From Chloroflexota bacterium (lineage in GTDB: Bacteria > Chloroflexota > UBA11872), in the NCBI GenBank assembly GCA_022825895.1, contig JAJDVX010000027.1, forward strand, positions 59,528-123,527: a DNA stretch of 64,000 bases, in the 5' to 3' direction. This document shows, one piece after another, positions 3,975 to 57,721 of the stretch (position 1 is the first letter of the stretch; each line of letters starts with the position of its first letter). Below the pieces are notes generated by a model. The model ran no database searches and was not told where the DNA came from. It was given only the letters and a program-made list of their open reading frames with translations. A program made the position numbers and the translations under genes.

Positions 3975-5444
3975 ATGAAGAATTCAGTCCAAATGACACG
4001 TCGACGACTGCTCGCCGCGGCTTTGGGCGGCACCGCGCTTGCGGTTTTGGCCGCTTGCGGCGAGGACACGCCATCGCCGCCGGCCGAGCCGGAAGCCTCA
4101 TTGCCAGTTACACCGTCGACAACCTCGCCAGGGGCGCCGGCGGCGACTCCGGCCGCGGCCGCCGCTGCGCCTCCCTCCGGCCCGCCGGCTGGGACCCGGC
4201 TGCCGGACATCGCGGCCCGCGTGCGGCAAGCGCAAGGGGACGTCGGCATCCTGCCGCCCGCGCCGGCAAGCGCGTCCGACAGCCCGATCGAGGTGCCGGC
4301 CGACGTGCTGGCCGCCAGGGCCGAGCGGCTGATAACCCTCAGCGACCGCGACCAGCTGTCGGCGACCGCCTGGCGCAACATCGGCTGGAAGACCGACTTC
4401 GAGACGTCCCTGGTTAAGTTCGACGAGATCTTCTCCGGCGGCGTGCCGCGCGACGGCATCCCGCCCATCGACGAGCCAAAGTTCACCGACTTCGCGGAAG
4501 CCGTGCAGTTCATCGCTGGTCGCGAGCCGGTGATCGCGCTTCGCGTCAACGGCGAGGCCCGCGCCTATCCGCTGCAGATTCTGACCTTCCACGAGATCGT
4601 GAACGATGTCATCGGCGGCCGGCCGGTCGCCGTCACGTTCTGCCCGTTGTGCAACTCGTCCGTGGTGTTTGACCGCGAAGTATTCGGGTCGGCTCTTCGC
4701 TTCGGCGTTTCCGGCAACCTGCGCAACAGCGACCTCATCATGTGGGACGACGTTACCGAAACCTGGTGGCAGCAGCTGACGGGCGAGGGCCTGGTCGGCC
4801 ACCTGGCCGGAGTGACCCTGACGTTCCTGCCATCGCAGTTGATCGCGTTCGACGAGTTCAAGGCCGCGTTTCCCGACGGCCGGGTCCTATCCCGCGACAC
4901 GGGTTTCACCCGCCCCTATGGCCGCAATCCGTACGGTGGATACGACACCGTCGACGACCGGCCCTTCCAGTCCGATGGCCGTATTGAGGAACGACCCTTC
5001 CTGTTCCAGGGCCGCCTGGATACTCGGCTGCGGGCGACTGAGCGTGTCGTTGCGCTGGAGATCAACGGTGAAGCCGCGGCCTACCCGTTTACCGAGTTGC
5101 GCGGGCAGCGCGTCGTCAACGATGACGTTGGTGGTGAGAAGATCGTCGTGCTCTGGACGCCCAACACGGTGTCGGCGTTGGATAAGACTTCGATTGCCGA
5201 CTCCGGCGCGGTTGGGTCGGGCGTGGCCTACGGACGGGTGGTCGACGGACGCGAACTGACCTTTGCCGTTCAGGACAATGCGTTCAAGGATCAGGAGACA
5301 GGATCGACGTGGGACATCACAGGCCGCGCGCTGAGCGGAGAATTGGCCGGCAAGGAGCTGCCGCCGCTGGTCCACGCCAACCACTTCTGGTTCGCCTGGG
5401 CCGCGTTCAGGCCCGCGACGCGCGTATACGCCGCGAGCTCCTGA
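3975..5444 (+). CDS. DUF3179 family lipoprotein (paralog 1)
   Basis: 489 aa. N-terminal MTRRRLLAAALGGTALAVLAACG is a Tat-like signal with a lipobox. Central GVPRDGIPPIDEPKF...VTFCPLCNSSVVF...WWQQLTGE matches my recollection of the DUF3179 signature. Confidence 0.65.
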   Translation: MKNSVQMTRRRLLAAALGGTALAVLAACGEDTPSPPAEPEASLPVTPSTTSPGAPAATPAAAAAAPPSGPPAGTRLPDIAARVRQAQGDVGILPPAPASASDSPIEVPADVLAARAERLITLSDRDQLSATAWRNIGWKTDFETSLVKFDEIFSGGVPRDGIPPIDEPKFTDFAEAVQFIAGREPVIALRVNGEARAYPLQILTFHEIVNDVIGGRPVAVTFCPLCNSSVVFDREVFGSALRFGVSGNLRNSDLIMWDDVTETWWQQLTGEGLVGHLAGVTLTFLPSQLIAFDEFKAAFPDGRVLSRDTGFTRPYGRNPYGGYDTVDDRPFQSDGRIEERPFLFQGRLDTRLRATERVVALEINGEAAAYPFTELRGQRVVNDDVGGEKIVVLWTPNTVSALDKTSIADSGAVGSGVAYGRVVDGRELTFAVQDNAFKDQETGSTWDITGRALSGELAGKELPPLVHANHFWFAWAAFRPATRVYAASS

Positions 5445-5470
5445 ACACGCGGATCGGCCGCCGGCGGCTG

Positions 5471-6769
5471 ATGGCCCTGGCCTCGGTCGCCGGAATGGCC
5501 CTCGCTGCCTGCTGCGAACCGGCCTCCAGCGCACTGACCGACCAGCCGGAGCGCGTGCCAACCGAAGCGGATCAGCCGCCGTTCGCCGCCGTGGTTCCGC
5601 CCGACACGTCGATTGCCGGCGTCGCCAGCGGGATGCGCGTGCCGCCTGAAGTCATCACAGCTCGCGAGTCGACACTGGTAGCCGCCACTGCGGCCGACCT
5701 GGCGCGCGCCGAGGAATGGCGCCGCCGGGACTGGTCGACCAACTTCCAGATTTCCAGCGTTGCCCTCTCCGAGTTGCAGACCGACGATCTTGAGCGCTTT
5801 CGTGCCGACCCCATTGACACGCCAGACTTCGGGGACATCGACACCGCCAATGCCTTTCTCACGGCGCGCGACCCGGTCGTCGCAGTCGCCGTCGGCGCGG
5901 ACACCCGCGCCTATCCCCTGCGCGTCCTTGTCTGGCACGAGACGGTCAACGACGTGGTTGACGGGAATCCGGTTCTGATCACTTACGACCCCCGCACCAA
6001 TGCGTCGCGGGTCTATGAGCGCCGCCTGCTGGGCGCCGCCATGCGGTTTCGCACCGCTGACGTCCTACACCAGGGCGGGCGTCTGCTCTGGGACTCCTTG
6101 ACCCAAACGTGGTGGCGCCAGTTCACCGGGGAGGCCATCGTTGGCGACTACACCGGCCTTCGCCTTCGGCCGCGTCCCTCCCTGTTGCTGAGCTACGAGG
6201 AGTTTCGACAGTCGTTTCCCCACGGCCAGGTCCTTGGGCCCTCGAGCGGCCCCGATGGCGATGACAGGCCCGACTACGGCGCCACCCGGTATGCGGGCTA
6301 CGACGGCGGCAAGGGTCCGCCCCAGCACGTCGACGGTGTGCCGGATCCCCGATTGGATCCAGCCGCACGCGTGCTGGCGCTGGAGGTCAACGGTGAGCCT
6401 GGGGCCTTCGATTTCAGTCATCTGATCAGCCGGCGTGTCCTGAACGACCGGGTGGGCGGCGAACCGGTCGTGGCTGTTTGGTCGCCCGGCGCTTTGTCAG
6501 TGCTCGACACGCCCAGAATCGCCGACGCGCGCGACGTGGGCATGGCGGCCGCCCACGGCCGCGAGGTCGATGGGCGCTTGCTCACCTTCGAGTTTGCCGA
6601 AGATTCGTTCCGCGACCGCGATACTGGCAGTGTCTGGAATCTGAGCGGACGAGCCATATCAGGCCCGTTGGCGGGCGCGCAGTTGCCGTCGCTCGTCCAC
6701 ACCGCGCCCTACTGGTGGGCCTGGTCGGCTCACAATCCAGCGACGCGATTGGTGACGAACCCTACCTAG
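5471..6769 (+). CDS. DUF3179 family lipoprotein (paralog 2)
   Basis: Clearly paralogous to the upstream gene (ITYDPRTNASRVYE...WWRQFTGE; lipobox MALAACC). The first ATG is at 5471. In-frame upstream codons encode ...RIGRRRLM with no canonical start between the gene-1 stop (5442-5444) and 5471, so the true start is uncertain. Confidence 0.6.
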   Translation: MALASVAGMALAACCEPASSALTDQPERVPTEADQPPFAAVVPPDTSIAGVASGMRVPPEVITARESTLVAATAADLARAEEWRRRDWSTNFQISSVALSELQTDDLERFRADPIDTPDFGDIDTANAFLTARDPVVAVAVGADTRAYPLRVLVWHETVNDVVDGNPVLITYDPRTNASRVYERRLLGAAMRFRTADVLHQGGRLLWDSLTQTWWRQFTGEAIVGDYTGLRLRPRPSLLLSYEEFRQSFPHGQVLGPSSGPDGDDRPDYGATRYAGYDGGKGPPQHVDGVPDPRLDPAARVLALEVNGEPGAFDFSHLISRRVLNDRVGGEPVVAVWSPGALSVLDTPRIADARDVGMAAAHGREVDGRLLTFEFAEDSFRDRDTGSVWNLSGRAISGPLAGAQLPSLVHTAPYWWAWSAHNPATRLVTNPT

Positions 6770-20561: not shown

Positions 20562-20938
20562 GCACCGCCTACGTCGACACATCCGCTCTGGTCGCGGTGG
20601 CCTTCGACGAATCCGAAGGCGCGGCGGTTGCCAGCCGGCTGCATGGCTATTCGCGCTTGCTGTCCGCGAATCTGCCGGAAGCCGAGTTGCGAGCGGTCTT
20701 TGCCAGGGAGGGGCTTGGCTTTCGGCCCGATCTGGTAGCACCGATTGAGTGGGTGCTGCCGGACCGGCCGCTGGCGACGGAACTGACCACCATTCTCGAG
20801 ACCGGATATCTCCGCGGAGCCGACCTCTGGCACGTCGCCACAGCCTTGTACGTTGCTCCGCATTCGGACCAGCTCGTGTTCGTGACCCTGGACGATCGTC
20901 AGCGAAGGGTCGCGGCAGATGTCGGATTCCAGACGTAG
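20558..20938 (+). CDS. PIN-domain (VapC-like) protein with no canonical start codon upstream of the PIN N-terminal motif; possibly degenerate
   Basis: The frame reads LSTAYVDTSALVAVAFDESEGAAV...LWHVATALYVAPHSDQLVFVTLDDRQ. The PIN N-terminal motif (AYVDTSALVA) lies between the in-frame stop at 20531 and the first GTG (20597). No ATG, GTG or TTG is available; only a CTG at 20558. Confidence 0.5.
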   Translation: MSTAYVDTSALVAVAFDESEGAAVASRLHGYSRLLSANLPEAELRAVFAREGLGFRPDLVAPIEWVLPDRPLATELTTILETGYLRGADLWHVATALYVAPHSDQLVFVTLDDRQRRVAADVGFQT

Positions 20939-25392: not shown

Positions 25393-26133
25393 TCATCGTT
25401 CGCCCGGTACGGGTGGTTCAGGTGGCGGAATCCTCCTTGACGTCTCGGCAAAGACATTCCGAACCACCTCGGCCTCCAGCTCGCCGATGTAGTTCGAGTC
25501 TCGTTCGATGCGTTGGCACTCCTGCTCGCCAAGCAAATGCACGCCCTCGGCCGTGACCTGTCCGAGGCTGATCGGAAAGGCCAGACCGTGCGCCGATGTC
25601 CGAATGATGTCAGCCATGGCGCGGTAAAGAAGCACGCTGGCCAGATCCAAGTCGGTGTTCGGTAAGTCGTAGTGCGCCAAGCTCGCTCGAGCGAGATAGG
25701 CAAATGCCTCACCCGAACCAATCGCCGAGAAGTCGTCCGGAGAGTGAATGGTCGATTCGCCCATGAGGTTGATCCTGAAGATCCAGGCATGTCCGGCCGT
25801 GTGGCCGGCGAAGAGGAACGAGCTTCGCAGGGGATTTGTCGCCGACGACCCGAGCCATCGGCCCAATGCCTCACGCTGAACCGGATTCACCACGTCCAGC
25901 AGCTTGTGCCGCAGATCGTGAATCGAAGCGTCCTCAACACCGCTTCCAAGGTGCTTCTGCAACTCGTGCTCGATGACCTGAGTCGTGCCCACATCCCCGG
26001 CCGAGCCCCAAATGACCCGTGGGCCCAACCGGCGCAATTTCGGCGTTGTGAACCTCACCGATCCCATAGTTACTTGGCTGTCGGCCGCCACAACGATGCC
26101 CCCCTTGCACGCTGCCGCGACGATGAGGGTCAC
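25393..26133 (-). CDS. Proteasome-beta/HslV-like N-terminal-nucleophile threonine peptidase homolog with ~55 aa C-terminal extension
   Basis: 246 aa. It starts MTLIVAAACKGGIVVAADSQVTMGSVRFTTPKLRRL, with Thr at +1 after Met, Asp at +17 and Lys at +31. This aligns to HslV [37 protein letters not shown], and IWGSAGDVGT / SAIGSGEAF correspond to HslV GFAGGTAD / AIGSGG. Lower GC (~58-60%) than the flanks (~70%). Confidence 0.6.
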   Translation of the reverse strand: MTLIVAAACKGGIVVAADSQVTMGSVRFTTPKLRRLGPRVIWGSAGDVGTTQVIEHELQKHLGSGVEDASIHDLRHKLLDVVNPVQREALGRWLGSSATNPLRSSFLFAGHTAGHAWIFRINLMGESTIHSPDDFSAIGSGEAFAYLARASLAHYDLPNTDLDLASVLLYRAMADIIRTSAHGLAFPISLGQVTAEGVHLLGEQECQRIERDSNYIGELEAEVVRNVFAETSRRIPPPEPPVPGER

Positions 26134-30984: not shown

Positions 30985-31257
30985 CTAGCCTCCCGCCACC
31001 GACGGCACAATCGACACTTCGTCGCCCGGGCCGACTTCGGTGTCGAAGCCCTCGCGGTAACGGATGTCCTCGCCGTCCACGTAGATGTTGACGAAGCGTC
31101 GAAGTTCGCCGTCGTCGTCCAGGATACGTTCGGAGAATCCGGGGTGGGCGGCGTTCAGCTTCTCCACCAGGTCGCCGACGTTCGCGGCGTCGATGTCCAC
31201 GCTGTTCTTGCCGTCCGTCAGGCTGCGGAGCGGGGTAGGGATTCGGACACGGGGCAT
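30985..31257 (-). CDS. MoaD/ThiS/CysO-family sulfur-carrier protein (C-terminal GG)
   Basis: 90 aa beta-grasp protein ending ...SIVPSVAGG. It is 20 nt downstream of the ThrC-like gene on the same strand. Confidence 0.7.
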   Translation of the reverse strand: MPRVRIPTPLRSLTDGKNSVDIDAANVGDLVEKLNAAHPGFSERILDDDGELRRFVNIYVDGEDIRYREGFDTEVGPGDEVSIVPSVAGG

Positions 31258-31277
31258 AAGGGCGTCTCCTGCGCAAT

Positions 31278-32525
31278 CTAGGCTGGCGTCAGCACGCCGC
31301 GGTCGGCCAGCGTCTGCTCAAACGATGTGATGCTCGGTCGGATGTCATAGCGGGCGTCCACACGGCCGTCGATAGCCTCCTGCGTTTTGAGTCCGTTGCC
31401 GGTCACCAGCGCCACCGTCAGGTCGTCCCGAGCGATCACGCCGCGCTCCGCAAGCTTGGCCAATACCGCAATTGTCACGCCGCCCGCCGTCTCCGCAAAA
31501 ATGCCTTCGGTGGAAGCCAGCAGGCGCATGGCGTCCACGATCTCGTCGTCGGTGACGGCTTCGATCACGCCGTCCACTTCCTGTGCCAGCTTCAGCGAAT
31601 AGAACCCATCGGCCGGGTTGCCGATCGCCAGCGACTTGGCCACCGTGTCCGGCTGGCGAACCGGCCGGTACGTGGTCTGGCCGCGGGCGAACGCCTCGGC
31701 CACCGGCGCGCAGCCGTCCGCCTGGGCCCCGTGGATGCGGGTGGACTGGCTGTCCAGCAGCCCCACCTCCACCAACTCCTTCATCGCCTTGCCCATCTTC
31801 GTGTACAGCGAACCGGAGGCGATCGGCGCAACGATGTGGTCCGGCGCCACCCAGCCCAACTGTTCCACCGACTCGAAGGCCAGCGTCTTGGATCCTTCGG
31901 CGTAGTACGGCCGGATGTTGATGTTGCAAAAGGCCCAGTTGTAGAGGTCGGCGATTTCGCTGCACAGCCGGTTCAGTTCGTCGTAGGTGCCTTCCACCGC
32001 CACGATGCCCGCGCCATACACCGCCGCCCCGCGGATCTTGCCCACTTCAAGGTCGGCGGGCATGAATACGTAAGTGGGCATGCCGTGACGCGCCCCGGCG
32101 GCCGACACGGCCCCGGCCAGGTTGCCGGTGGACGCGCAGGCGAAGGTCTCGAACCCGAACTCGCGGGCCTTGGTGATCGCCACCGCCACCACCCGGTCCT
32201 TGAAGGAGTACGTGGGGTTTACGGTGTCGTTCTTGATGTGCAGGTTGGTCAGGCCCAGCCGTTCGCCCAGGTTGTCGGCGCGTTGCAGCGGCGTGAACCC
32301 GACCGGCCATGTCTCGTCCCAGCCCCCCTCCACCGGCAGCAACTCGTGGTAGCGCCACAGCGTGGGCGGCCGGCTGGCGATGGCATCGCGCGAGATGGTC
32401 TCGCGGATGGCCGCGTAGTCGAACTGCGCTTCCAGCGGCCCGAAGTCGAACTCGCAGATGTGCGTGGCTTGCAGCGGATACGCACGGCTGCACTCGCGAC
32501 AGCGAAGCGTCTGAGTCGTGGACAT
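31278..32525 (-). CDS. Threonine-synthase-family PLP enzyme with N-terminal Zn-ribbon (ThrC-like; possibly a carrier-dependent homocysteine synthase)
   Basis: 415 aa. LRCRECSRAY...HICEF is a Cys4-type ribbon. PLP-lysine motif YSFKDRVVA. Fold-type II Gly-rich loop. Confidence 0.75.
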   Translation of the reverse strand: MSTTQTLRCRECSRAYPLQATHICEFDFGPLEAQFDYAAIRETISRDAIASRPPTLWRYHELLPVEGGWDETWPVGFTPLQRADNLGERLGLTNLHIKNDTVNPTYSFKDRVVAVAITKAREFGFETFACASTGNLAGAVSAAGARHGMPTYVFMPADLEVGKIRGAAVYGAGIVAVEGTYDELNRLCSEIADLYNWAFCNINIRPYYAEGSKTLAFESVEQLGWVAPDHIVAPIASGSLYTKMGKAMKELVEVGLLDSQSTRIHGAQADGCAPVAEAFARGQTTYRPVRQPDTVAKSLAIGNPADGFYSLKLAQEVDGVIEAVTDDEIVDAMRLLASTEGIFAETAGGVTIAVLAKLAERGVIARDDLTVALVTGNGLKTQEAIDGRVDARYDIRPSITSFEQTLADRGVLTPA

Positions 32526-33228
32526 GCGGATGATCCTTGGCAGAGGCGCCGACGAAGATGTCAGCGGATGGCGAAGTCCCGAATCGCCGGGTAACCCGGC
32601 TCGCCCGCGTCACGCGCGGGCCCGGCCATCGCCATCGGCCGCTGAGCAGCGTGGGAGAGTTTGCCTCTCACTCCGTCGCAAACCCCTTGGCGCTCCGCGC
32701 CCCGCCCGGGGCGCTGCCTCGCGCCGGTGACCCTCGCATCTCGCAGCTTCCGCTACCGGAATTGGCACCCTCTCGAGCATTCGCTCGAAGGTTGCCCGGC
32801 TTCGTTGGGCCGACTCCCTCCACCAATCTTGATACGAGGTGTGTCACGTCAACCTTGGTGTTCGCGCATCCTAGCACCCGAAACGGCGTCCAGGCGGACG
32901 GCATGGGCCCGTCGAGCGGGAAAAACGCCTCGGACACCCCTCCCAGACGTGCTACGATGGGCGACTGCCTGAAAAGGCATCCGCGCAGTTCGGCGGCGCT
33001 TGATTCATCAGCCGCCCCGGTGGCGCACCGGCCATTATCAGCCGGTCGCGGGCGCGACGGCACCTTAACAGGGGAAGAGTGAGTGCGAGTACTCGCGTCA
33101 TTCCAATGTGTCTGGCGCGACAGTAATCCACGTGATTCGAGGATGACTCGGTGGCTCAGGGCTCCGGTACACCCGGCGCTCTGAAGTAATTGCGATCTGT
33201 ATCACGCCCGCCAGGGCGTGTGTTGAGA

Positions 33229-34752
<1,524 letters not shown>

Positions 34753-34974: not shown

Positions 34975-35330
34975 TGTGCCACCATGTACGGGAGCGTCGG
35001 GCCGGTCAGGCGGCCGCTCCGGCTCACGCCGGAGAGGAAAGTCCGCACTTCACAGAGCGCGGTAGCGGGTAACACCCGTCGCCCGAATCGGCTTACGCCG
35101 GCAAGGGCCGGAACAGGGGCACAGTGACGATGCCCGCGCTCCCACCTCGGGAGCGCGGGAGTGAAACGGCTAACCTCTACCGGAAGCAAGGCCAAGTCGG
35201 GACGCCACCAGGCTGCTCGCCCAGTCCCAGGTAGGCTGCACGAGGCCGGCGGCAACGCCGGTCCCAGATAGATGGCCGCCCACGACAGAATGCGGCTTAT
35301 CGACCGGTCCGACGCTCACCGGTCATCGGG
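34975..35330 (+). ncRNA. rnpB: RNase P RNA (bacterial type A); boundaries approximate
   Basis: P4 5' strand GGAGAGGAAAGTCCGC and 3' strand ACAGAATGCGGCTTATCG (compensatory CCGC/GCGG). GGGTAACACCC and GTGAAACGGC conserved regions are present. P2 pairs GAGCGTCGG (34991-) with CCGACGCTC (-35317). I did not resolve P1. Confidence 0.8.
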
Positions 35331-35440: not shown

Positions 35441-35515
<75 letters not shown>

Positions 35516-35858: not shown

Positions 35859-36266
35859 ATGCAGTTTCCAATCGTGATACATAAAGACGCGACTAGCAGC
35901 TACGGAGTCACGGTACCCGATCTACCCGGGTGCTTCTCTGGCGGTGAATCGTTTGAGGAGGCCATAACGTCGGCCCACGAAGCTGTTGCTTGTCATATTG
36001 AAGGCTTGCTCATGGATGGCGAGCCTATCCCGGAACGAAAGCCGATTGATCTACATCAAGGCAATCAGGACTACGATAACGGTGTCTGGGCGCTGATTGA
36101 TGTCGATATTTCCAGACTCTCCAGTAAGACCGTGCGCGTCAATATCACGATGCCTTCACGCGTGCTGTCCATCATTGATGAAGCGGCGGCTCGGGAAAGA
36201 GAAACCCGGTCGGGGTTACTCACTCGCGCCGCTCTTCAATTCGTTGACAGACAATCAACTGCATAG
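35859..36266 (+). CDS. hicB: HicB-family antitoxin with C-terminal ribbon-helix-helix (orphan)
   Basis: 135 aa. YGVTVPDLPGCFSGGESFEEAITSAHEAVACHIEGL is the classic HicB N-domain. C-terminal VRVNITMPSRVLSIIDEAAARE is an RHH. I hand-translated 35520-35860 and found no HicA-like ORF. Confidence 0.75.
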   Translation: MQFPIVIHKDATSSYGVTVPDLPGCFSGGESFEEAITSAHEAVACHIEGLLMDGEPIPERKPIDLHQGNQDYDNGVWALIDVDISRLSSKTVRVNITMPSRVLSIIDEAAARERETRSGLLTRAALQFVDRQSTA

Positions 36267-36357: not shown

Positions 36358-37347
36358 CTAGGTCGCTGCCGTTAACTCAACTGGATAAATCGGCGTGTCT
36401 TTACCGTAGTGCAATCGCAGCGCCCAGTCCCAGATGCTGAAGTACGGCACCGGCGTCAGCGTCTCGCTGGCCAGCGATCCGGATATCGCCTTTCCGCTCA
36501 ACCCGTCCCAGCGGCTGCCGGTTTCCCGGTCGATGAGGTCGGTTCCGTCGGCGTGGAAGGTGAGGCGACGTCCGTCGACCCGCGCTTGGTAGGTGCGCAC
36601 CAGCCGGCTCTCGGCGTCCGCAAAGGCCACCACCGGCGTGTTGCCAACCACCGCCTGCTGTACGCCGAGTCGCGCCGTCTCGTCGAAGTAGAACCCGGCC
36701 CCCGCGCCTTCGATGTCGACTCCGATGACCCAGATGTCTCTGGGCTGGCTCTGAATGTGAAAGGCGCTGTTGGGCGCGCCAACGGACAGGCGCTGCTTCA
36801 GGACGAGCGTGGTCGGATGCTGCTCGAGCCAGGAGCCCCAGGGCGTCAGTGAAGCGACAATCGGCCTGAGCCGCGCGCCGTCGAGTGGGCCGTCCAGCGC
36901 CTCGCCGAATACCTGGCTCCAGATGCTGCCGGTCTCGTGGTCCCACCAGGTCTGGGCGCCCTTGTAGAGCGCGCCTTGCACGCCCAGGGTCAGGGTTTGC
37001 CCCTCCCACACCCGTTCAAAGACCAGCCCGCTGTAGCACAGCGGGCACCAGGTAATCGCCACCGGCACGCCGCCCACCACGTCGTTCACGATCTCGTAGC
37101 TCACCAGCGGCTCGATGGGATAGGCGCGGGCGTCGCCGTTGATCTCCACCGCCAGCACCATCTCGTGCGGCTTCAGGCTGATGTTGTCAGGCGTGGTCAG
37201 ACTCGGGTTGTAGATCGGCTGGATGGCGTCCCGCAATATCCGCACGTCCCAGCGCAACTCGTACGCCGTCGACCGCTGCGGCAGGAACAGCAGCGCTCCA
37301 ATCACCGCTGCCATGGCCAGTACGCCAAGCACATGCTGTCGTCTCAT
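36358..37347 (-). CDS. DUF3179 family protein (paralog 3; signal-anchored)
   Basis: 329 aa. Shares VAITWCPLCYSGLVF...TWWDHETGS with the two paralogs at 3975-6769. N-terminal hydrophobic anchor. Confidence 0.65.
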   Translation of the reverse strand: MRRQHVLGVLAMAAVIGALLFLPQRSTAYELRWDVRILRDAIQPIYNPSLTTPDNISLKPHEMVLAVEINGDARAYPIEPLVSYEIVNDVVGGVPVAITWCPLCYSGLVFERVWEGQTLTLGVQGALYKGAQTWWDHETGSIWSQVFGEALDGPLDGARLRPIVASLTPWGSWLEQHPTTLVLKQRLSVGAPNSAFHIQSQPRDIWVIGVDIEGAGAGFYFDETARLGVQQAVVGNTPVVAFADAESRLVRTYQARVDGRRLTFHADGTDLIDRETGSRWDGLSGKAISGSLASETLTPVPYFSIWDWALRLHYGKDTPIYPVELTAAT

Positions 37348-37394: not shown

Positions 37395-38870
37395 ATGGAA
37401 TGGTGTGAAGGTGGATGCGTTCGACGTGAGACGGCTCGCCGTGGACGAGCGTCCCTGAAGCCAAGGCGAATCTCCCGTCGCCGTCTGCTGGCTCTAGCTG
37501 CCGTCGCACCTGTGCTGTCGGCCTGCGGCGAGACGGTCGCGCCCAGCCGCCTGTCCCAGCTCTGGCCCGAACCCACGCCGGACCGCGCCGCCGCCCTGGT
37601 CACCGCCGGCTGGCAGGGCTACTGGTATGCCCGCTACGTCGGGAGCCTCATTGCCACTCAGCCCGGCCTCGGCCTGCCGGCCAGCACGGTCGAAGCCAAT
37701 CACCATGCGGCCCTCGCCGCCACGCGGCCGGAGGCGATCCCGATTGCCCTCCCCTTTGCCACCGCCACCGTGGGCGTCCCTGCAACCCCCGGGGAATCGC
37801 CAACGGTGCGGCAGACCGACGGCATCGTCCGCGTCCGCACCGCAGCCCTGTATATGCGGCTCCTCCAGGCCCTGGCCCGCGCCCACACGCTGCGTGCACC
37901 TGAGGCGCCTGCCGCCGCCCGAACGCACGAACTCCGGCTCGCGGCGGCCTACACCGCCCTTGCGGTCGAAACATCCGACCGCATCCAGGCCGACCTGTTC
38001 CGGCCCAGGCTTGGCGTCCTCTTCGACTCCGACGACACCTACGACCCGCTCGGCAACATCGACCTCATCTGGGCCACCGCCGATGCGGCAGGGCTGGCGC
38101 TCGCGTCCGGCAAGAAGGAGACCGCCGCCAGGCTGCGATCCGCGGCCGACCAGCTATATGCCTTCTACCGGAAGAGCCTCCCCGACACCGTCGACGAGGC
38201 TTACCGCACGGTCAGAGCGCAGGCCCGGCTTGGCCCGGTGTCGGCCCGCGACGACTTCCGCGCCTTCATCCCCGTCCAGCAGCGGCGCCTCGCCTACAGG
38301 CTCCGCGACCAGGAACCCGCGGACATCTTCCAAGCCGCCAACGCCCTGTCCGCCCTGATTCGGCTGACCCCGCTGATGCCGCCCGACAGCGGCGTCGGCG
38401 AGCGCGCCGGCGACCTGTTCCTGGACCTGGCCACCTCGTTCGACAGGGAGGATGGCTGGCTGCGGGACCGACTTACGTATACGGCCGACGAAGTCGCGTC
38501 GCTCCTGCGCGCGCTCCGGCTGGCCGCATTCCACGGCCGGCCGCCCATCGAACGCCGCTACGCGCGCGACCTCCTGGTGACGGCCTGGGACGCCCTGGTC
38601 AACCGCAGCGGCCTGATGCGAGGCGCGCCCCCGGGCCGCGCCGACGGGGTCGCCGAATCCTGGGAGCAGCACCTGGAAGACTCGGCCTACCGCCACCCCG
38701 CTGTCCCCGCCAACACCGCCCCGCTCTTCGCGCGATCCGTAACCCGCGATGCCTCCGGCTGGACCTCCGTCGACCCCGCGCTCGACACCGCTTCCGCCCT
38801 CGAACTGGCCCTCGAATCCCTCTGGCTTCACGCCACCTTCGAAGCCTTGAGCGCCGAGTCCGCCGCCTGA
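37395..38870 (+). CDS. Hypothetical lipoprotein (Tat/Sec signal, lipobox LSACG)
   Basis: 491 aa. RRISRRRLLALAAVAPVLSACG. I recognise no catalytic motifs. Confidence 0.45.
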   Translation: MEWCEGGCVRRETARRGRASLKPRRISRRRLLALAAVAPVLSACGETVAPSRLSQLWPEPTPDRAAALVTAGWQGYWYARYVGSLIATQPGLGLPASTVEANHHAALAATRPEAIPIALPFATATVGVPATPGESPTVRQTDGIVRVRTAALYMRLLQALARAHTLRAPEAPAAARTHELRLAAAYTALAVETSDRIQADLFRPRLGVLFDSDDTYDPLGNIDLIWATADAAGLALASGKKETAARLRSAADQLYAFYRKSLPDTVDEAYRTVRAQARLGPVSARDDFRAFIPVQQRRLAYRLRDQEPADIFQAANALSALIRLTPLMPPDSGVGERAGDLFLDLATSFDREDGWLRDRLTYTADEVASLLRALRLAAFHGRPPIERRYARDLLVTAWDALVNRSGLMRGAPPGRADGVAESWEQHLEDSAYRHPAVPANTAPLFARSVTRDASGWTSVDPALDTASALELALESLWLHATFEALSAESAA

Positions 38871-43229: not shown

Positions 43230-43417
43230 GATCGACAGCCCTCATGACACTCGATACCAGCCGACGCGGCCAAGCCGCCGCCCGCTGATCGCCGCCCGCG
43301 CCAAGTCTATGCTCTTGCCTGATCGACTTCCGTGCCCCCCACGCTCACCGTCCCGGCACTCGCAACGGCCACAGCGCCAGGACGAGCGATAGACACCATG
43401 TGGTGTATAGTGGCGTC

Positions 43418-43678
43418 ATGAGTCGAACACAGGTCTATCTCGGCGACGAAGAGCTCGCGCTCCTGGATCGCGCCGTCCGAGCCACCGGCGCGTCGCGGTC
43501 CGAGTTGATCCGGCGCGCGGTCAGGCGCACCTTTGGCACAGTCTCGACGGCGGACAAGCTGCTGGCGATTAAAGCCACCGCAGGTCTGTGGTCCGACCGT
43601 CCATTCACCGGCGCCGAATACGTAGACGCCATCCGCGGTGACCTCAATGAACGGTTGCGCAAACTCGGTCTTGAATGA
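43418..43678 (+). CDS. vapB: Ribbon-helix-helix antitoxin (VapB/CopG-like)
   Basis: [35 protein letters not shown] is an RHH fold. It overlaps the downstream PIN gene by ATGA. Confidence 0.7.
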
Positions 43679-44052
43679 AGCTACTGGACTCTTCGGTAGC
43701 CATCGACCATCTGCGTGGAGTCGAGGCTTCCAGCACGCTCCTGCTTAGCCTGATCACCACGGGCGAAACGGTGGCCGCCAGCGAAGTCGTACGTTTTGAG
43801 TTGCTGGCGGGCGTGCGCAATCACGAACGGGACTGCCTGGAGCGCTTCTTCGCAGCGCTCACGTGGGTACCGGTCGATGAGCCTATAGTTCGCGCGGCCG
43901 GGTCTTTGGCGCGGAAATATCGTCGGGCCTACCAGGGCATCGATGACGTTGACTATCTCATCGCCGGCACGGCGCTTCTCTTTGATGCCGATCTCCTGAC
44001 CACCAACGTCAGGCACTTCCCAATGTTCGACGATCTGAAGTCGCCCTACTGA
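43675..44052 (+). CDS. vapC: PIN-domain toxin VapC
   Basis: 125 aa. LLDSSVAID...E..L...V...[28 protein letters not shown] carries the PIN acidic residues. Confidence 0.8.
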
Positions 44053-45079: not shown

Positions 45080-45922
45080 GTGGGGCATGCGGCGGGGGCG
45101 CTACGCTCGCTCCCGTGCCTGATTCCACCTCCGGTGCGCCGTGTGCGGTTCTGCCTGATTGGGGACACTCACGGCTTTGTGCCCGGGCTGGAGGCGGGGC
45201 TGGCGGCGTGCCGGCGGCATGCGCCCGACCTGATCGTGCACTGCGGCGACTTCCTGACGTCGCCGTTTTCGCCCGATCCGCCGGCCGAGACGATCGAGTT
45301 GCTGCGTTCGCAGAACGTGGAGGTCATCTACGGCAACAACGAGGTGTATTTGCGCGACTGGGAGACGCCGCGTTGGGAGGCGACGGTGGCGGAACGGCGG
45401 CGGCGGCCTGACTCGCCCGAGTATTTCCTGTCGCTGATCGAGCAGGGGCAGGCGAATCTCAGTGCCGCGGACCTTGCGTGGCTTCGAGCGTTGCCTCCCG
45501 AGCTTTCCCTGGATGGGGCGCGCCAAGGCGATGTCTATGTCTGCCACGGCATGCCCGGCAACCCGTTCGCCACCACCTGGGACACGGACCCGGCGTTCAC
45601 ACCCGAATTCACCGCCGAGGAAATTGACGCGGCGCTCTCCCACCCCGCCGTCGCCTCGGCCGACCTGATTCTTTGCGGCCACACCCCGGGGCCAACTTTG
45701 CTCCGCACCGCGCTGCCCAGCGGCCGAGCGGCGCTGGTCGTTCGGAGCTCCGGCCACCTGCCGGGCGAGGGACCCGGCCCGTGGTACCAGGGCATCTGCG
45801 TGCTGACCGACCGCGGGGGTCCGCTCTCCGGGTTCGCGCGCTGGAGCATCGAGTTCGAATGGGCGCCGTTCGAGCCCCGCGATCCGAATTGGTCGGGCCT
45901 GGCAACGAGCCCCACGATCTGA
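45080..45922 (+). CDS. Metallophosphoesterase (paralog of 19429..20157); start uncertain
   Basis: FCLIGDTHG, HCGDF and LCGHTPGP motifs. In-frame GTGs at 45080, 45134 and 45143. The last gives the typical M-R-F-x-L-I-G-D-T-H-G N-terminus. Confidence 0.65.
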   Translation: MGHAAGALRSLPCLIPPPVRRVRFCLIGDTHGFVPGLEAGLAACRRHAPDLIVHCGDFLTSPFSPDPPAETIELLRSQNVEVIYGNNEVYLRDWETPRWEATVAERRRRPDSPEYFLSLIEQGQANLSAADLAWLRALPPELSLDGARQGDVYVCHGMPGNPFATTWDTDPAFTPEFTAEEIDAALSHPAVASADLILCGHTPGPTLLRTALPSGRAALVVRSSGHLPGEGPGPWYQGICVLTDRGGPLSGFARWSIEFEWAPFEPRDPNWSGLATSPTI

Positions 45923-46614
45923 TGTCCGCCTACGACCCGATTGCCGACTGGTACGCGGCGCAAACCCGGTCGGGTTCGCTGCGACGGTTCCTCGATCACC
46001 TGGCTCGTGGCCTCCTCGATATGGCAGGGGACGTGTCCGGCACGAGAGTGCTGGACGCCGGCTGCGGGGAAGGTCATGTGGCGCGGCTGTTTGCGAGCCA
46101 CGGGGCCAGCGTCGTGGGCGTGGACATCTCGCCGAGGCTCCTGGAGCACGCACGGGAACTCGAGACGCGGGAACCGCACGGGATCGAGTTCGTGGAGAGG
46201 GACCTGGGCAAGGGGCTGCCTTCCCACAGAGGCGCGTTCGACCTGGCGACGGCGAACATGATGCTCGACGACTGCGAGGACCTGGCAGGTGTCCTGGGTG
46301 GGATTGCCGACGCCCTCAAGCCCGGCGGTCGTCTCCTGCTGTCGATGCCCAATCCCTACGCGCTCGCCGCGCGCGGCAAGGTGGACGACTACTTCGCATC
46401 GGGAACGCTCTCCCAGACGTTCGGCACGGATCAAGCGGAGTACAGAGTCCCGTTTTACTACCGAACCTTCGAGGAGTGGGTGGCGGCGTTTCGCCAGGCC
46501 GGGTTCCTGCTGCGCAGCCTGGTGGACGTTCCGCCCGACCCAGGCGACCCGCATCTGCCGGACGGCCCGGTGCCCAAGATCATGCTGGTCGAGCTGATTC
46601 GTCGCGCGACTTAA
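45922..46614 (+). CDS. Class I SAM-dependent methyltransferase
   Basis: 230 aa. Motif I VLDAGCGEG. Motif post-I VVGVDIS. The start overlaps the previous stop (TGATG). Confidence 0.75.
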   Translation: MSAYDPIADWYAAQTRSGSLRRFLDHLARGLLDMAGDVSGTRVLDAGCGEGHVARLFASHGASVVGVDISPRLLEHARELETREPHGIEFVERDLGKGLPSHRGAFDLATANMMLDDCEDLAGVLGGIADALKPGGRLLLSMPNPYALAARGKVDDYFASGTLSQTFGTDQAEYRVPFYYRTFEEWVAAFRQAGFLLRSLVDVPPDPGDPHLPDGPVPKIMLVELIRRAT

Positions 46615-46707
46615 GCGTTGCTGACCGACCACGTTCGGGCTCATCCACTAACTCGCGGTCGAGGCGATCAGCACTCATCTCGCCGCAATACGGCGACGGA
46701 CCTGGGC

Positions 46708-49064: not shown

Positions 49065-50201
49065 ATGCCGGCGGACATGGACGGCTTAGCGGATCGGAGC
49101 GACCAGTCGCCCCTGATCACGCAGGCCGATGGCCTGCACAATCCGCCGCGCTGGCTGCGGGACCAGGTCGTTGGCTACGTGGCGAGTGTTGAAGCGCCGC
49201 CGGGTGATCAGCTGCCGTTCCGCGAGAATCCGCAGGCGGGCGCCTCGGCCGATATCGAAACCACTGTTTGGGCGCTGGTGGCCCTGCGGCAGGTCGGCGC
49301 GGAGGATGCGATTGAGCGCGTCCGAATGCGGGCGCTAGAGGCGCTGCAGGCCGCGTACAACCCCGAGTTGGGCATCTACCAGCCGACCGCCACCCAGGTC
49401 GGCGGCGGACCGGGCACGTGGCGGATGCACTTTGACGCGGTCGTCCGAATTGGATTCGAGCTGCTGAACGAGCCTGCGCGGCCGTTTCCGCGTGGATTGG
49501 ATCGCCTGTCTGACTTGCCGTGGGCGCCGGTGGGCGAGGAGGCGTGGCGGCCGTGGCTCGACCAGGCCTGGGCCGAGGATCCACGCTCGGCCGCCAAAGC
49601 GGCGTTTCAGTACCTGTGGTTCTACACACGCTTCGCGGGCTGCGACCACGTTGACGACTTGGACGATTCGGGGCGGCAGGTGCTGGCCTATATGGAGGCG
49701 CGCCGCGACCCGGCTACCGGGTTCATCGGGATGGGCCCGGAGGTGGAGCTGGGCTGGGCGATGCGGGGGCACCGCAATCTGGCCCTGAACCTGCTGTGGC
49801 CGCTAGGGGTGGACGAGCCGGAAATTGAGCGCATGATCGACGCCACCCTGGCTTGCCGGCGGCGTGACGGGCTGTTCCATGACGGCAGCATGTGCGCCAA
49901 CATGGACGCCGTTCACCTGCTGGCCGAGTACGGGCGGCGGACCGAGCACCGACGCGCCGAGGCCATCGACTCCACCTGCCGCTGCATCGGGGCGATGTTT
50001 CGTCGCCTGGCCTCGCCGGATGGCGGCTTCAGGTACGAGTTGGCCGAACGCGACGCCACCGATCCGGCCGAGATTCACACGACCAACGGCCTGGCGTTTG
50101 CGCTCTTCAGCCTCCACTACTGGCAGGCGCTGGATGCTGACGCTCGTGAGCATTTGGAGGAGGCGCTGGCGGGGATAGGGTGGGTTCAGTATGACATCTA
50201 G
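49065..50201 (+). CDS. Hypothetical protein (possible alpha/alpha-toroid, prenyltransferase-repeat-like)
   Basis: 378 aa. Recurrent aromatic-rich helices (TTVWALVALRQVG, YLWFYTRF) are suggestive only. Confidence 0.4.
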   Translation: MPADMDGLADRSDQSPLITQADGLHNPPRWLRDQVVGYVASVEAPPGDQLPFRENPQAGASADIETTVWALVALRQVGAEDAIERVRMRALEALQAAYNPELGIYQPTATQVGGGPGTWRMHFDAVVRIGFELLNEPARPFPRGLDRLSDLPWAPVGEEAWRPWLDQAWAEDPRSAAKAAFQYLWFYTRFAGCDHVDDLDDSGRQVLAYMEARRDPATGFIGMGPEVELGWAMRGHRNLALNLLWPLGVDEPEIERMIDATLACRRRDGLFHDGSMCANMDAVHLLAEYGRRTEHRRAEAIDSTCRCIGAMFRRLASPDGGFRYELAERDATDPAEIHTTNGLAFALFSLHYWQALDADAREHLEEALAGIGWVQYDI

Positions 50202-50321: not shown

Positions 50322-51476
50322 ATGCTGCAGGAATCGATGCCTCAGTGGGATATCCATTTCAATGTCCGGGTTCGCGCCGGAGATCCGCGGCTGGTGCGGG
50401 CGGTCGAGCGCTCGCGCGCCATCGCCGAGACGATTCGCGGCATTCCGGTCACCGCTGGCGTGCGAAGGCGTCTCAACGCGCTCAACCTCGCGCGCGCCGT
50501 GCGGGGCACGACTGCCATCGAGGGCACGCGCATCTCCGAGGACGAGGCGCTGGCGGTGCTGGCGGCGGCCCCGGACCGGCCAGTGCTACCGACCAGCCGG
50601 GCGCGCGATGAGCGTGAAGCCCGCAACGCCCGAGCCGCATTGGAGTTCGTACAGCGGACCGTGAGGACCGATCTGGGGCGGCCGCTCGACGAAGCGCTGA
50701 TCAGGGAAATCCACCGACTGACGACGGACGGCCTCCGCTACCCGGGAAACGTGCCGGGCGAGTACCGCAGCCATGCCGTGACCGTCGGGAACTACCGCCC
50801 GCCGGCTACCGGCGAGGAAGTCCGCCGCCTGATGGCCGAGTTCGTACGCTGGTTCAACCAGGGTGAGGCGCTGCACTGGGACCCCATCGCCCGTGCGGCG
50901 CTCGCCCACTTTTGCGTCGTGAGCATCCACCCGTTCGGCGATGGCAACGGGCGCACCTCGCGCGCGGTCGAGAGCTTCATGCTTTGCCGTGCCGGTATCC
51001 ACGCCTTCGGCTTCTACTCGCTGGCCAACTTCTACTACGAGCACCACCACGAATACATTGACGCGCTGACGGCGGCGATGTTTCAGTCCGGCGGCGACCT
51101 GACGAACTTCGTGCTGTTCGCCGTGGAGGGACTGGCGGACGAACTGGCGACGGTCCGCAGCGAACTGTTGGCGAAGGTTCGCGTTTTGGCGTTCCGCGAC
51201 TATGCGCAGGAACGGCTCGAAGCGGTTCCCCGACTTGGCCAGCAACGGCGGGCACGAATGCTGGACCTCATCCGGCGACTGACGGAGCAGTCGCTGCGCG
51301 GCGTGCCTGACCACCAGATGGCGACCGACGTATTGGTGGCCCTGGCGTATGGACGGACCGGTCGGCGCACGGTGCAGCGTGACCTGCGCCTGCTGCTCGA
51401 TCAGCAATTGCTGATCGAGCGCGACGGCCATCTGGTCCCCAATGTCGAGCTCATGTCCGAACTCGCTGAGGCATAG
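50322..51476 (+). CDS. fic: Fic family protein (Fic/DOC AMPylator-type) with N-terminal inhibitory-helix motif
   Basis: Core motif HPFGDGNGRTSR. TAIEG fits (S/T)xxxE(G/N). C-terminal wHTH-like region. Confidence 0.8.
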   Translation: MLQESMPQWDIHFNVRVRAGDPRLVRAVERSRAIAETIRGIPVTAGVRRRLNALNLARAVRGTTAIEGTRISEDEALAVLAAAPDRPVLPTSRARDEREARNARAALEFVQRTVRTDLGRPLDEALIREIHRLTTDGLRYPGNVPGEYRSHAVTVGNYRPPATGEEVRRLMAEFVRWFNQGEALHWDPIARAALAHFCVVSIHPFGDGNGRTSRAVESFMLCRAGIHAFGFYSLANFYYEHHHEYIDALTAAMFQSGGDLTNFVLFAVEGLADELATVRSELLAKVRVLAFRDYAQERLEAVPRLGQQRRARMLDLIRRLTEQSLRGVPDHQMATDVLVALAYGRTGRRTVQRDLRLLLDQQLLIERDGHLVPNVELMSELAEA

Positions 51477-56695: not shown

Positions 56696-57721
56696 ATGTC
56701 CGTCAAGCTTTCCGATGTTCTGAAGGACGCGGATAAATCTTCCGGAGTCGATTCCTCCCTCAGCGAATACAAAGCGCACTTCAGGAACGCCGAGCGCGGT
56801 GAATCGGACGACGAGAAGAGCGAGCACCAGACGGTCAACAATCTCTACTACGACCTGGTTACCGACTTTTTCGAGTACGGATGGGGCAAGTCGTTTCACT
56901 TTGCCCCGCGGGTCCCTGGCGAGAGCTTCAAGGCTTCGCTGGCGCGCCACGAGCACTACATGGCGCACACCCTGGGGCTCAGGCCCGGGATGGTGGTGGC
57001 CGACATCGGGTGTGGCGTGGGCGGACCGCTCATGGAGATTGCCCGGTTTTCCGGCGCAAAGATCGTTGGCGTCAACAGCAATGCCTATCAGCTCGAACGC
57101 GCCCGGAAACTGACACGCGAGGCGAAGCTAGCGGACCTTGCGGACTTTATTCACTGCGACTTTCTGAGTGTTGAGGCTCCGGATGAATCGTTCGACGCGG
57201 CCTACTCCATCGAGGCATCGTGCTGTGCACCGGACAAAGTCAGCATCTACCGCGAGATTTACCGGCTGCTAAAGCCTGGCGCCTGCTTTGGCGCGTATGA
57301 GTACTGCATGACTGAGCGATTCGACGCAAGCAATCCCCACCACCTCAGGATTAAGGCCGACATTCAGTTGGGCGGTGGGCTGCTCATCATCGACGACTAC
57401 CAGACCGTGGATGACGCGCTTCGAACCGTTGGCTTCGAAGTGTTGGAGACACGGGATCTGACGCTGCAGGCAGGTCCGTCAATCCCCTGGTATCAGCCGC
57501 TGGCCGGCTCGGGTATCTCGTTCGCCAGCTTTCGCAGTTCGCGGATCGGGCGCTCGGTGACGCACGGCACGCTGCGAGTGCTCGAAGCGCTGCGCATCGT
57601 GCCGCAGGGATCGGTTCGCGTGGCGGACACCCTGAATCTCTGCGCGGCAGCCATGGCCGAGGCGGGCCGGCTGGAGATCTTTACGCCGATGTATTTCGTC
57701 CACGCCCGAAAGCCCGCGTAG
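56696..57721 (+). CDS. Sterol 24-C-methyltransferase (ERG6/SMT)-like SAM-dependent methyltransferase
   Basis: 341 aa. YYDLVTDFFEYGWGKSFHFAP is SMT region I (YEYGWGxSFHF). SAM motif I VADIGCGVGGP. Post-I IVGVNSN. GC ~56% versus ~70% genome background. Confidence 0.7.
   Translation: MSVKLSDVLKDADKSSGVDSSLSEYKAHFRNAERGESDDEKSEHQTVNNLYYDLVTDFFEYGWGKSFHFAPRVPGESFKASLARHEHYMAHTLGLRPGMVVADIGCGVGGPLMEIARFSGAKIVGVNSNAYQLERARKLTREAKLADLADFIHCDFLSVEAPDESFDAAYSIEASCCAPDKVSIYREIYRLLKPGACFGAYEYCMTERFDASNPHHLRIKADIQLGGGLLIIDDYQTVDDALRTVGFEVLETRDLTLQAGPSIPWYQPLAGSGISFASFRSSRIGRSVTHGTLRVLEALRIVPQGSVRVADTLNLCAAAMAEAGRLEIFTPMYFVHARKPA

Follow-up and report, generated by a model that had tools for sequence, protein, structure and literature searches.

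A 64-kb stretch of DNA from an uncultured Chloroflexota bacterium (the window, by which the whole stretch analysed is meant) carries a gene for a pyridoxal 5'-phosphate (PLP)-dependent enzyme of the threonine synthase (ThrC) family, which is followed by a gene for a small sulfur-carrier protein ending in Gly-Gly and preceded by a full-length S-adenosylmethionine (SAM) riboswitch aptamer of the SAM-I class. By analogy with a characterised system, the two genes are predicted to constitute a MetM/MetO-type operon for methionine biosynthesis that is repressed by SAM via the riboswitch, a reading to which we assign a probability of roughly 0.8. The assignment to the MetM/MetO family is based on gene context, clade membership and the identities reported in the literature, and the pair very probably belongs to this already published system rather than to a new one.

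The MetM/MetO route has been described in Streptomyces albulus. In that description (Hasebe et al. 2024, Appl Environ Microbiol 90:e01247-24, as cited in 10.1101/2024.10.14.618325), the ThrC homologue MetM produces homocysteine from O-phospho-L-homoserine and the thiocarboxylate of MetO. In GapMind, the pathway consists of MetO, the JAMM hydrolase Mec, the activating enzyme (E1)/sulfurtransferase MoeZ and MetM, the last of which is stated to be often misannotated as threonine synthase (10.1101/2024.10.14.618325). A SAM riboswitch is located upstream of S. albulus metM, and a cyanobacterial ThrC whose gene adjoins a metO-like one shares 51.6% identity with MetM (PMC12172450). The ThrC of Bacillus subtilis is a distant homologue of MetM, with only 33% (10.64898/2026.09.15.751699).

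Conservation of the gene pair

The approximately 55 open reading frames (ORFs) of the window were annotated by Pfam or precomputed annotation, and the relatives compared with it are designated as numbered loci or contigs (for example, L087). The survey of MetM-like loci, with one genome per species, comprised 80 genome loci encoding proteins with 54-61% identity to the window protein, from the Chloroflexota, Nitrospirota, Verrucomicrobiota, Cyanobacteria, Actinomycetota, Planctomycetota, Aquificota and other phyla.

In the window, the MetM-like gene lies upstream of the MetO-like gene, with a gap of exactly 20 nt between them in which AGGAG is found. An earlier note on this DNA, made from the sequence by eye, had proposed precisely such a pair, a ThrC-like gene 20 nt from a gene for a Gly-Gly-terminal MoaD-like protein, and the ORFs, the gap and the Pfam and NCBIfam matches bear this out. 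The 90-aa carrier, which ends in ...IVPSVAGG, matches the Pfam family ThiS (8e-15) and scores above the cutoffs of the NCBIfam models SAMP1 and moaD_arch. Its best solved relatives are Mycobacterium tuberculosis CysO in the CysM-CysO complex (3dwg, 70 bits) and the CysO that is the partner of BexX (4n6e, 66 bits).

A MetO-like ORF is found downstream of the MetM-like gene, on the same strand, in 73 of the 80 genome loci, which represent at least six phyla. Exactly at Gly-Gly end 43 of these 73 ORFs, the window protein likewise, so that no JAMM protease is needed for the maturation of its C-terminus; 23 others carry a tail of 1-7 residues past Gly-Gly and would need such a protease. Six more are fused to a further C-terminal domain, and one is cut by the contig end. 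The fusions are found in L083 (7307-8350, with an AhpD/alkylhydroperoxidase-like domain), L030 (6331-6906), L041, L063, L068 and L070; as the C-terminus following Gly-Gly is not free in these proteins, they need processing or another mode of action. An E1 of the MoeB/ThiF/MoeZ kind is encoded within ~4.5 kb of the pair in 13 of the 80 loci, and a JAMM/desampylase-like protein in 10.

The PLP enzyme and its position relative to threonine synthases

The 415-aa protein encoded by the MetM-like gene belongs to the PLP enzymes of fold type II (Pfam PALP, 3e-69), and its PLP-lysine motif, SFKDR, aligns with those of solved ThrCs. An identical protein is encoded in GCA_022819765.1 and in several metagenome contigs. 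By sequence, the nearest enzymes of solved structure are threonine synthases, from Aquifex, B. subtilis, Thermus and M. tuberculosis, and the alignments with them start only at about residue 52-58 of the query. A Foldseek search with the AlphaFold model (pLDDT 83) returned the ThrC structures 6cgq, 2zsj and 2d1f as top matches, with 34-36% identity, and the structures found by sequence with 34-37%.

In a neighbour-joining tree with ThrC references from Priestia megaterium (encoded in a hom-thrC-thrB operon), B. subtilis and Aquifex, the window enzyme falls into a tight clade with 85 homologues, which stem from the Chloroflexota, Nitrospirota, Verrucomicrobiota, Cyanobacteria, Actinomycetota and other phyla, and the Nonomuraea protein (52-61% identity). 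This clade is split by a long branch from the references and from other ThrC-family proteins. Identity to the window protein is 36% for P. megaterium ThrC, 39% for the B. subtilis and Aquifex enzymes, 34-35% for the zinc-ribbon-bearing 'thrC' products of haloarchaea and Chlorohelix, and 29% for a ThrC-family paralogue encoded beside the MetM-MetO pair in L087. Neither grouping with characterised ThrC in the tree nor a hom/thrB context in the window is found for this enzyme. The earlier note had suggested a carrier-dependent homocysteine synthase in place of a threonine synthase, to be examined by phylogeny; the separation from bona fide ThrC, the pairing with the carrier in the surveyed loci, the SAM riboswitches and the published MetM/MetO system all lend support to this proposal, by analogy.

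The same gene order is also present in a cultured actinomycete, Nonomuraea gerenzanensis, which has a SAM-I aptamer (68.7 bits), a MetM-like gene (52.5% identity) and a gene for a 91-aa Gly-Gly protein. A homology search started from this orthologue returned only Streptosporangiales, without any Streptomyces entry.

The paralogue in L087, a relative of 79% identity, is a 378-aa protein (P0311; 5567-6703, minus strand) encoded convergently to MetM-MetO. It scores 263 bits against PRK08197, and database entries name it 'PLP-dependent enzyme' or 'threonine synthase'. Its family is present in the L087 genome and, as far as can be inferred, apparently also in that of L089. With this paralogue as the query, the closest relatives of the window were not among the best 120 matches. 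In these Chloroflexota, the true threonine synthase may be this 378-aa protein.

The N-terminal segment is where the window protein departs from the pattern of its family, C-x2-C...H-x-C-x2-C. The zinc ribbon announced in the earlier note stands in part: C9, C12, H22 and C24 are present, and the fourth cysteine is replaced by Asp27 (HICEFDF; codon 27, 32445-32447), a substitution shared with the close relatives of the protein (HxCEFDF in the window clade). His22 is invariant in a 15-sequence alignment (A1). Residues 24-27 are the weakest part of the AlphaFold model, with a confidence below 50. Judging from these residues, the ribbon is degenerate yet plausible, and the metal site of the Asp-bearing lineages may be of the Cys3-His or Cys3-Asp type. 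The same Cys-to-Asp swap occurs independently in members of the Verrucomicrobiota (L015, L033, L036 and L064).

The SAM-I aptamer

The aptamer upstream of the MetM-like gene matches Rfam RF00162 over model positions 1-108 of 108 (E = 2e-14; gathering score 44.4), and it is separated from the ATG by a spacer of 207 nt with 72% GC, which comprises the expression platform and additional sequence. A custom covariance model (R1), built from the Rfam SAM-I matches, was applied to the 80 genome loci, 10 close relatives and 28 metagenome loci. Aptamers were found directly upstream of the MetM-like gene in 24, 8 and 19 of these, respectively, with one of the metagenome aptamers truncated and 18 full. 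All R1 matches lay directly 5' of the MetM-like gene and on the same strand, 11-404 nt before its start.

Control by a SAM riboswitch is lineage-dependent: it is seen in the Chloroflexota, Verrucomicrobiota and Actinomycetota, and the cyanobacterial and Nitrospirota loci surveyed yielded no SAM aptamer, in agreement with a remark on Microcystis (PMC12172450). At permissive settings, no other Rfam family was matched in the window leader or in the leaders of the aptamer-less loci L087 and L023, T-box, SAM-II, -IV, -V, -VI and SAM-SAH included. In the alignment, the aptamers of L021, L028, L051, L058 and L075 have no P4 hairpin and are in this respect SAM-I/IV-like; the best Rfam match within the clan is RF00162. 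From the end of the aptamer to the start codon there are 11-13 nt in L021, L028, L051 and L168, and ~63 nt in L058 and L075.

Folding of the leader and the expression platform

In the earlier note, the leader (32526-32730) was taken to be a highly structured region of ~200 nt, possibly SAM-responsive, with three GC hairpins on the minus strand: GGCCGAUGGCGAUGGCC (32640-32624), GCCCGCGCGUGACGCGGGC (32621-32603) and CCGGGUUACCCGG (32599-32587). An Rfam search of the kind that it proposed revealed the aptamer described above (RF00162), so the suspected response to SAM has a full SAM-I aptamer behind it; this aptamer is not among the listed hairpins, which form another module further downstream. 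It starts 3 nt past the leader end at 32730, and only 28 nt of it fall inside 32760, the end of the region named for the search; being outside the inspected leader, it could not be matched by eye. As to structure, the hairpins are present in the sequence, but the 205-nt leader as a whole is hardly exceptional (z = -1.30 versus dinucleotide shuffles; 20 of 200 shuffles fold as well), so its GC-rich hairpins are partly compositional. The sole exception is a 78-nt sub-module, 32563-32640 (z = -2.67; 2 of 200 shuffles). The GGCCGAUGGCGAUGGCC hairpin (GGCC...GGCC) did not hold up, being absent from the minimum-free-energy fold.

Right after P1, the window leader has a GC-rich hairpin in the position of a terminator, with a degenerate U-tract. 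The aligned hairpin of L089, a relative with 67% protein identity, is a textbook intrinsic terminator, GGAACCCC...GGGGUUUUUCUUUUU, and hairpins followed by U-runs occupy the same place in L006, L038, L083, L047, L013, L035, L033, L041, L010 and L024. These terminators imply that the riboswitch of the MetM-like family is basically a transcriptional OFF switch. In contrast, the actinobacterial aptamers that end 11-13 nt before the start codon leave room only for control of the ribosome-binding site, so the family evidently has more than one type of platform. For the whole spacer of five relatives, RNAalifold produced no convincing shared fold, and its covariation term was positive (unfavourable). 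In the high-GC window and its closest relatives, the U-run is eroded and a consensus terminator is not found. A constrained fold of the window leader without P1 places the strand 3' in P1 against 32655-32641, by prediction, and not against the hairpin at 32725-32689.

A conserved 9-mer/hairpin module in the leader

The 9-mer AUGGCGAUG is located ~110 nt 5' of the MetM-like ATG, downstream of the terminator-like hairpin and ahead of the ribosome-binding site, and is followed by a GC hairpin (hairpin A). A covariance model of this motif (R2), scanned against ~1 Mb of sequence, located it in 13 Chloroflexota loci, 59-118 nt upstream of the MetM-like start, with no further match below E = 0.5 in the sequence searched. 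The MetM-like proteins at the 9-mer-bearing loci range in identity to the window protein down to 56-59%, and in L087 and L023 the module is present without a SAM aptamer or any other Rfam match. The module is conserved, specific to the MetM-like leader and independent of the SAM aptamer.

For the module in the window, single-sequence folds predict a junction of two hairpins, A and B, closed by a helix between GAUGGCGA (32636-32629) and UCGCCAUC; over eight relatives, RNAalifold recovered hairpin A alone and not the closing helix. Covariation in hairpin A is weak, with one pair showing double changes and 21 of 500 shuffles reaching the observed score; a metagenome scan aimed at more covariation provided only three close relatives (L090-L092). 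One compensatory change fits the pairing of the 9-mer, UGGC/GCCA in L175 versus UAGC/GCUA in L086. The position of the predicted partner of the 9-mer is not conserved among the loci: it overlaps the spacer between the Shine-Dalgarno (SD) sequence and the MetM start, or the start region, in L006, L023, L038 and L083, and lies ~40 nt upstream of the start in the window.

Where the 9-mer is exact or has a single mismatch, in nine loci, it opens an ORF of 14-25 codons that begins with Met-Ala-Met. A conserved peptide was considered and rejected, since only M-A-M is conserved and there is no consistent SD sequence. Substitutions between the window and L085 are distributed 4/2/3 over the codon positions, without the third-position bias of a coding sequence, and a length of 14-25 codons is unremarkable at this GC content. 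The 9-mer was also rejected as a promoter or leaderless start, there being no consistent -10 element upstream.

It is a speculative and rather doubtful proposition that AUGGCGAUG and the hairpin constitute a second, previously undescribed cis-regulatory module of Chloroflexota MetM operons, acting after read-through of the riboswitch. If so, the module might operate as an attenuator, in which the 9-mer would open the tiny upstream ORF (Met-Ala-Met...) and, in several lineages, the helix formed by the 9-mer would sequester the MetM ribosome-binding site. With Met-tRNA in short supply, a ribosome would stall at the third codon (AUG) and cover the 9-mer, so that the MetM start would stay open; the leader would then hold two sensors in tandem, one for SAM and a translational attenuator responding to methionine. 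Alternatively, a new RNA that binds a ligand or a protein could have its core in this module.

Table 1. Features of the predicted MetM-MetO operon and its leader, followed by other features of the window.
Feature	Position	Strand	Basis or remark
MetO-like sulfur carrier, ThiS/MoaD beta-grasp family, 90 aa, no tail after the C-terminal Gly-Gly	30985..31257	-	ORF and family matches
MetM-like PLP enzyme, 415 aa, ATG start	31278..32525	-	ORF and family, tree and structure evidence; function predicted
Shine-Dalgarno-like AAGGA, 8 nt 5' of the MetM-like ATG	32534..32538	-	Direct sequence reading
Hairpin B (CCGGGUUACCCGG, 32599-32587) and UCGCCAUC (32574-32567)	32567..32599	-	Single-sequence folds
9-mer AUGGCGAUG (32635-32627) and GC hairpin A (GCCCGCG-CGUGA-CGCGGGC, 32621-32603)	32598..32637	-	R2, 54.3 bits
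GC-rich hairpin right after P1 (GGCGC..GCGCCCC-GGGC-GGGGCGC..GCGCC), then AAGGGGUUUG; terminator position, U-tract degenerate	32689..32725	-	Alignment with L089; folds
SAM-I (S-box) riboswitch aptamer, full length, P1-P4	32733..32838	-	Rfam RF00162, 70.2 bits; R1, 78.5 bits
16S rRNA gene	33231..34751	+	
RNase P RNA	34998..35315	+	
tRNA, anticodon CAT	35441..35515	+	
Proteasome-subunit-family protein	25393..26133	-	Pfam Proteasome, 1e-10
SAM-dependent methyltransferase with sterol methyltransferase C-terminal domain	56696..57721	+	PF08498, 4e-23
DUF3179 protein	3975..5444	+	
DUF3179 protein	5309..6769	+	
DUF3179 protein	36358..37347	-	
Toxin-antitoxin-type genes, scattered	20597..20938, 35859..36266, 43400..44052, 50322..51476		
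793-aa protein	58291..60672	-	Short DUF3604 match only
559-aa protein	62273..63952	-	Short DUF3604 match only
Proteins without Pfam match	37395..38870, 49065..50201, 45535..46644		

Predicted function of the operon and alternative explanations

In the predicted route, a MoeZ/ThiF-type E1 encoded elsewhere would adenylate the C-terminal Gly-Gly of the MetO-like protein, leading to its thiocarboxylate, as judged by homology to S. albulus. The MetM-like enzyme would then catalyze a gamma-replacement on O-phospho-L-homoserine, in which phosphate leaves and the MetO thiocarboxylate attacks a vinylglycine-type PLP intermediate; an S-to-N acyl shift followed by hydrolysis would yield L-homocysteine, the direct precursor of methionine. 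High SAM would stabilise P1 of the aptamer and switch the operon off, which in relatives of lower GC content would plainly be achieved by the intrinsic terminator right after the aptamer. As the hairpin of the window has no U-run, termination there may be inefficient, factor-assisted or replaced by translational control.

Several observations weigh against a SAM-repressed MetM/MetO operon. Among the ORFs of the window there is neither a ThiF/MoeB/MoeZ E1, a rhodanese or a JAMM protein nor hom, thrB, metE/metH or a second ThrC. The 415-aa protein scores 255.6 bits against the NCBIfam thrC model TIGR00260 (cutoff 167.1) and thereby passes the equivalog threshold, and a cyanobacterial member of the family is reported to act as threonine synthase/deaminase in vitro and not to raise methionine in vivo (PMC12172450). 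With respect to regulation, a consensus scan found no intrinsic terminator with a U-run in the window leader, and constrained folds of this leader did not give a classical antiterminator, that is, pairing of the 3' strand of P1 with the 5' strand of the terminator. The activating enzyme would have to be encoded elsewhere in the genome, and in most of the other surveyed loci, too, the E1 is more than ~4.5 kb away. The passing of TIGR00260 by MetM-type proteins is a known source of misannotation (10.1101/2024.10.14.618325).

The same TIGR00260 score would be expected if the large gene encoded a genuine threonine synthase and the Gly-Gly protein were an unrelated, adjacent MoaD/ThiS protein for molybdopterin or thiamine. 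This explanation, to which the PRK08197 score (284 bits, slightly below the cutoff of 303), the lack of a second ThrC in the window and the naming also lend some weight (all best-scoring family models, and every database entry seen for the MetM-like gene, are called 'threonine synthase'), appears highly unlikely nonetheless. The SAM riboswitch upstream signals methionine or SAM, not threonine; the pairing with the Gly-Gly protein is kept in 73 of the 80 loci and at least six phyla; the hom/thrB context of P. megaterium thrC is missing; the MetM-like clade is separate from bona fide ThrC; an extra ThrC-family paralogue exists in L087 and, by inference, in L089; and no molybdopterin or thiamine genes are found near the pair in the window. 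We also regard it as very unlikely that the enzyme depends on a thiocarboxylate and makes another product, either cysteine from O-phosphoserine, in the manner of CysM/CysO, or a sulfur-containing secondary metabolite. Its fold and family are those of ThrC, which uses O-phosphohomoserine, and the cysKM model gives it only 43 bits compared with 256 for TIGR00260; control by a SAM riboswitch points to the methionine branch; the window provides no biosynthetic-cluster context for the pair; and the characterised member of the family is reported to make homocysteine (10.1101/2024.10.14.618325). A different product would be in line with the two CysO proteins being the closest solved relatives of the carrier and with the fusion of the carrier to AhpD-like or other domains in some loci.

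An alternative that concerns regulation only, and that we consider a serious contender at somewhat less than even odds, is that SAM exerts its control via translation or Rho instead of intrinsic termination, the long structured spacer being a translational platform. The missing U-run and the length and GC content of the spacer are in its favour, and so are the actinobacterial aptamers that end close to the start codon and the predicted pairing of the 9-mer with the SD-spacer or start region in four loci. However, the hairpin right after P1 is positionally homologous to the bona fide terminators of the relatives, the partner of the 9-mer in the window is off the ribosome-binding site, and the clade shows no conserved anti-SD pairing.

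Other features of the window

The 16S rRNA gene divergent from the MetM operon is a lone one, with no 23S or 5S rRNA gene in the window, and is followed on the same strand by the genes for RNase P RNA and a tRNA. The divergent 16S-MetM arrangement is kept in L087, where the 16S gene was confirmed by Rfam, and is only suggested in L085, by a gene-free gap, and in L091, by upstream sequence shared with L087. The proteasome-subunit-family protein is also encoded in the sibling contigs L003 and L004 and is absent there in L001 and L002. The methyltransferase with a sterol methyltransferase C-terminal domain is unusual in a bacterium, and the three DUF3179 proteins are paralogous. The toxin-antitoxin-type set comprises a HicB-like antitoxin without a recognised HicA, a pair of RHH and PIN proteins and a Fic/DOC protein, and includes a weak match to PIN that stays below threshold (E 9e-4, 20 bits versus a cutoff of 24).

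Significance and comparison with known systems

Since the MetM-like gene goes by the name 'threonine synthase', the homocysteine route of these uncultured Chloroflexota would be missed in metabolic reconstructions, and if this gene is the only ThrC homologue, threonine synthesis would be wrongly credited to these organisms. The MetM-MetO pair is widespread across the phyla listed above, and the survey extends a pathway whose characterisation had been confined to one Streptomyces. The conceptual gain is modest, as the hypothesised system has already been published; the only novel thread is the 9-mer/hairpin module of the leader.

The S. albulus MetM/MetO system resembles that of the window in several respects: a ThrC-homologous PLP enzyme is directly followed by a ThiS/MoaD-type Gly-Gly carrier, a SAM riboswitch is present upstream, the enzyme is annotated as 'threonine synthase', and the genes for E1 (MoeZ-type) and JAMM (Mec-type) proteins are not necessarily linked to the pair. 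The window system differs in its origin, the Chloroflexota as opposed to the Actinomycetota of S. albulus; in its carrier, which ends exactly at Gly-Gly and needs no C-terminal processing; in the Asp that replaces Cys four of the zinc ribbon; and in a 207-nt spacer with a degenerate terminator and the extra 9-mer/hairpin module.

The CysM-CysO-Mec-MoeZ system of M. tuberculosis (3dwg) likewise has a Gly-Gly carrier, whose thiocarboxylate donates sulfide, and a PLP enzyme with an O-phospho amino acid as its substrate; there, however, the enzyme is of the CysK/CysM family and converts O-phosphoserine to cysteine, whereas that of the window is of the ThrC family. In the HcyS/MetY system of Wolinella succinogenes, reportedly described by Krishnamoorthy and Begley, homocysteine sulfur is said to come from the thiocarboxylate of a Gly-Gly carrier, as in the route predicted for the window; the partner enzyme is reportedly the O-acetylhomoserine sulfhydrylase MetY, of fold type I and acting on O-acetylhomoserine, and the window enzyme is of the ThrC family and fold type II. 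Canonical ThrC (6cgq, 2zsj, 1uim, 2d1f) has the same fold and SFKDR motif as the window enzyme, and O-phosphohomoserine is presumably their shared substrate. It differs in belonging to a separate clade with 36-39% identity to the window protein, in the lack, among the solved bacterial enzymes, of the N-terminal zinc-ribbon segment, and in having hom/thrB as its context in place of a Gly-Gly carrier. Finally, the aptamer conforms to SAM-I (RF00162) in its full-length P1-P4 and conserved core and in its location ahead of a methionine-pathway gene, a role that is here predicted, while the expression platform departs from the usual SAM-I arrangement in its unusual length (207 nt) and in having no recognisable pair of U-tract terminator and antiterminator.

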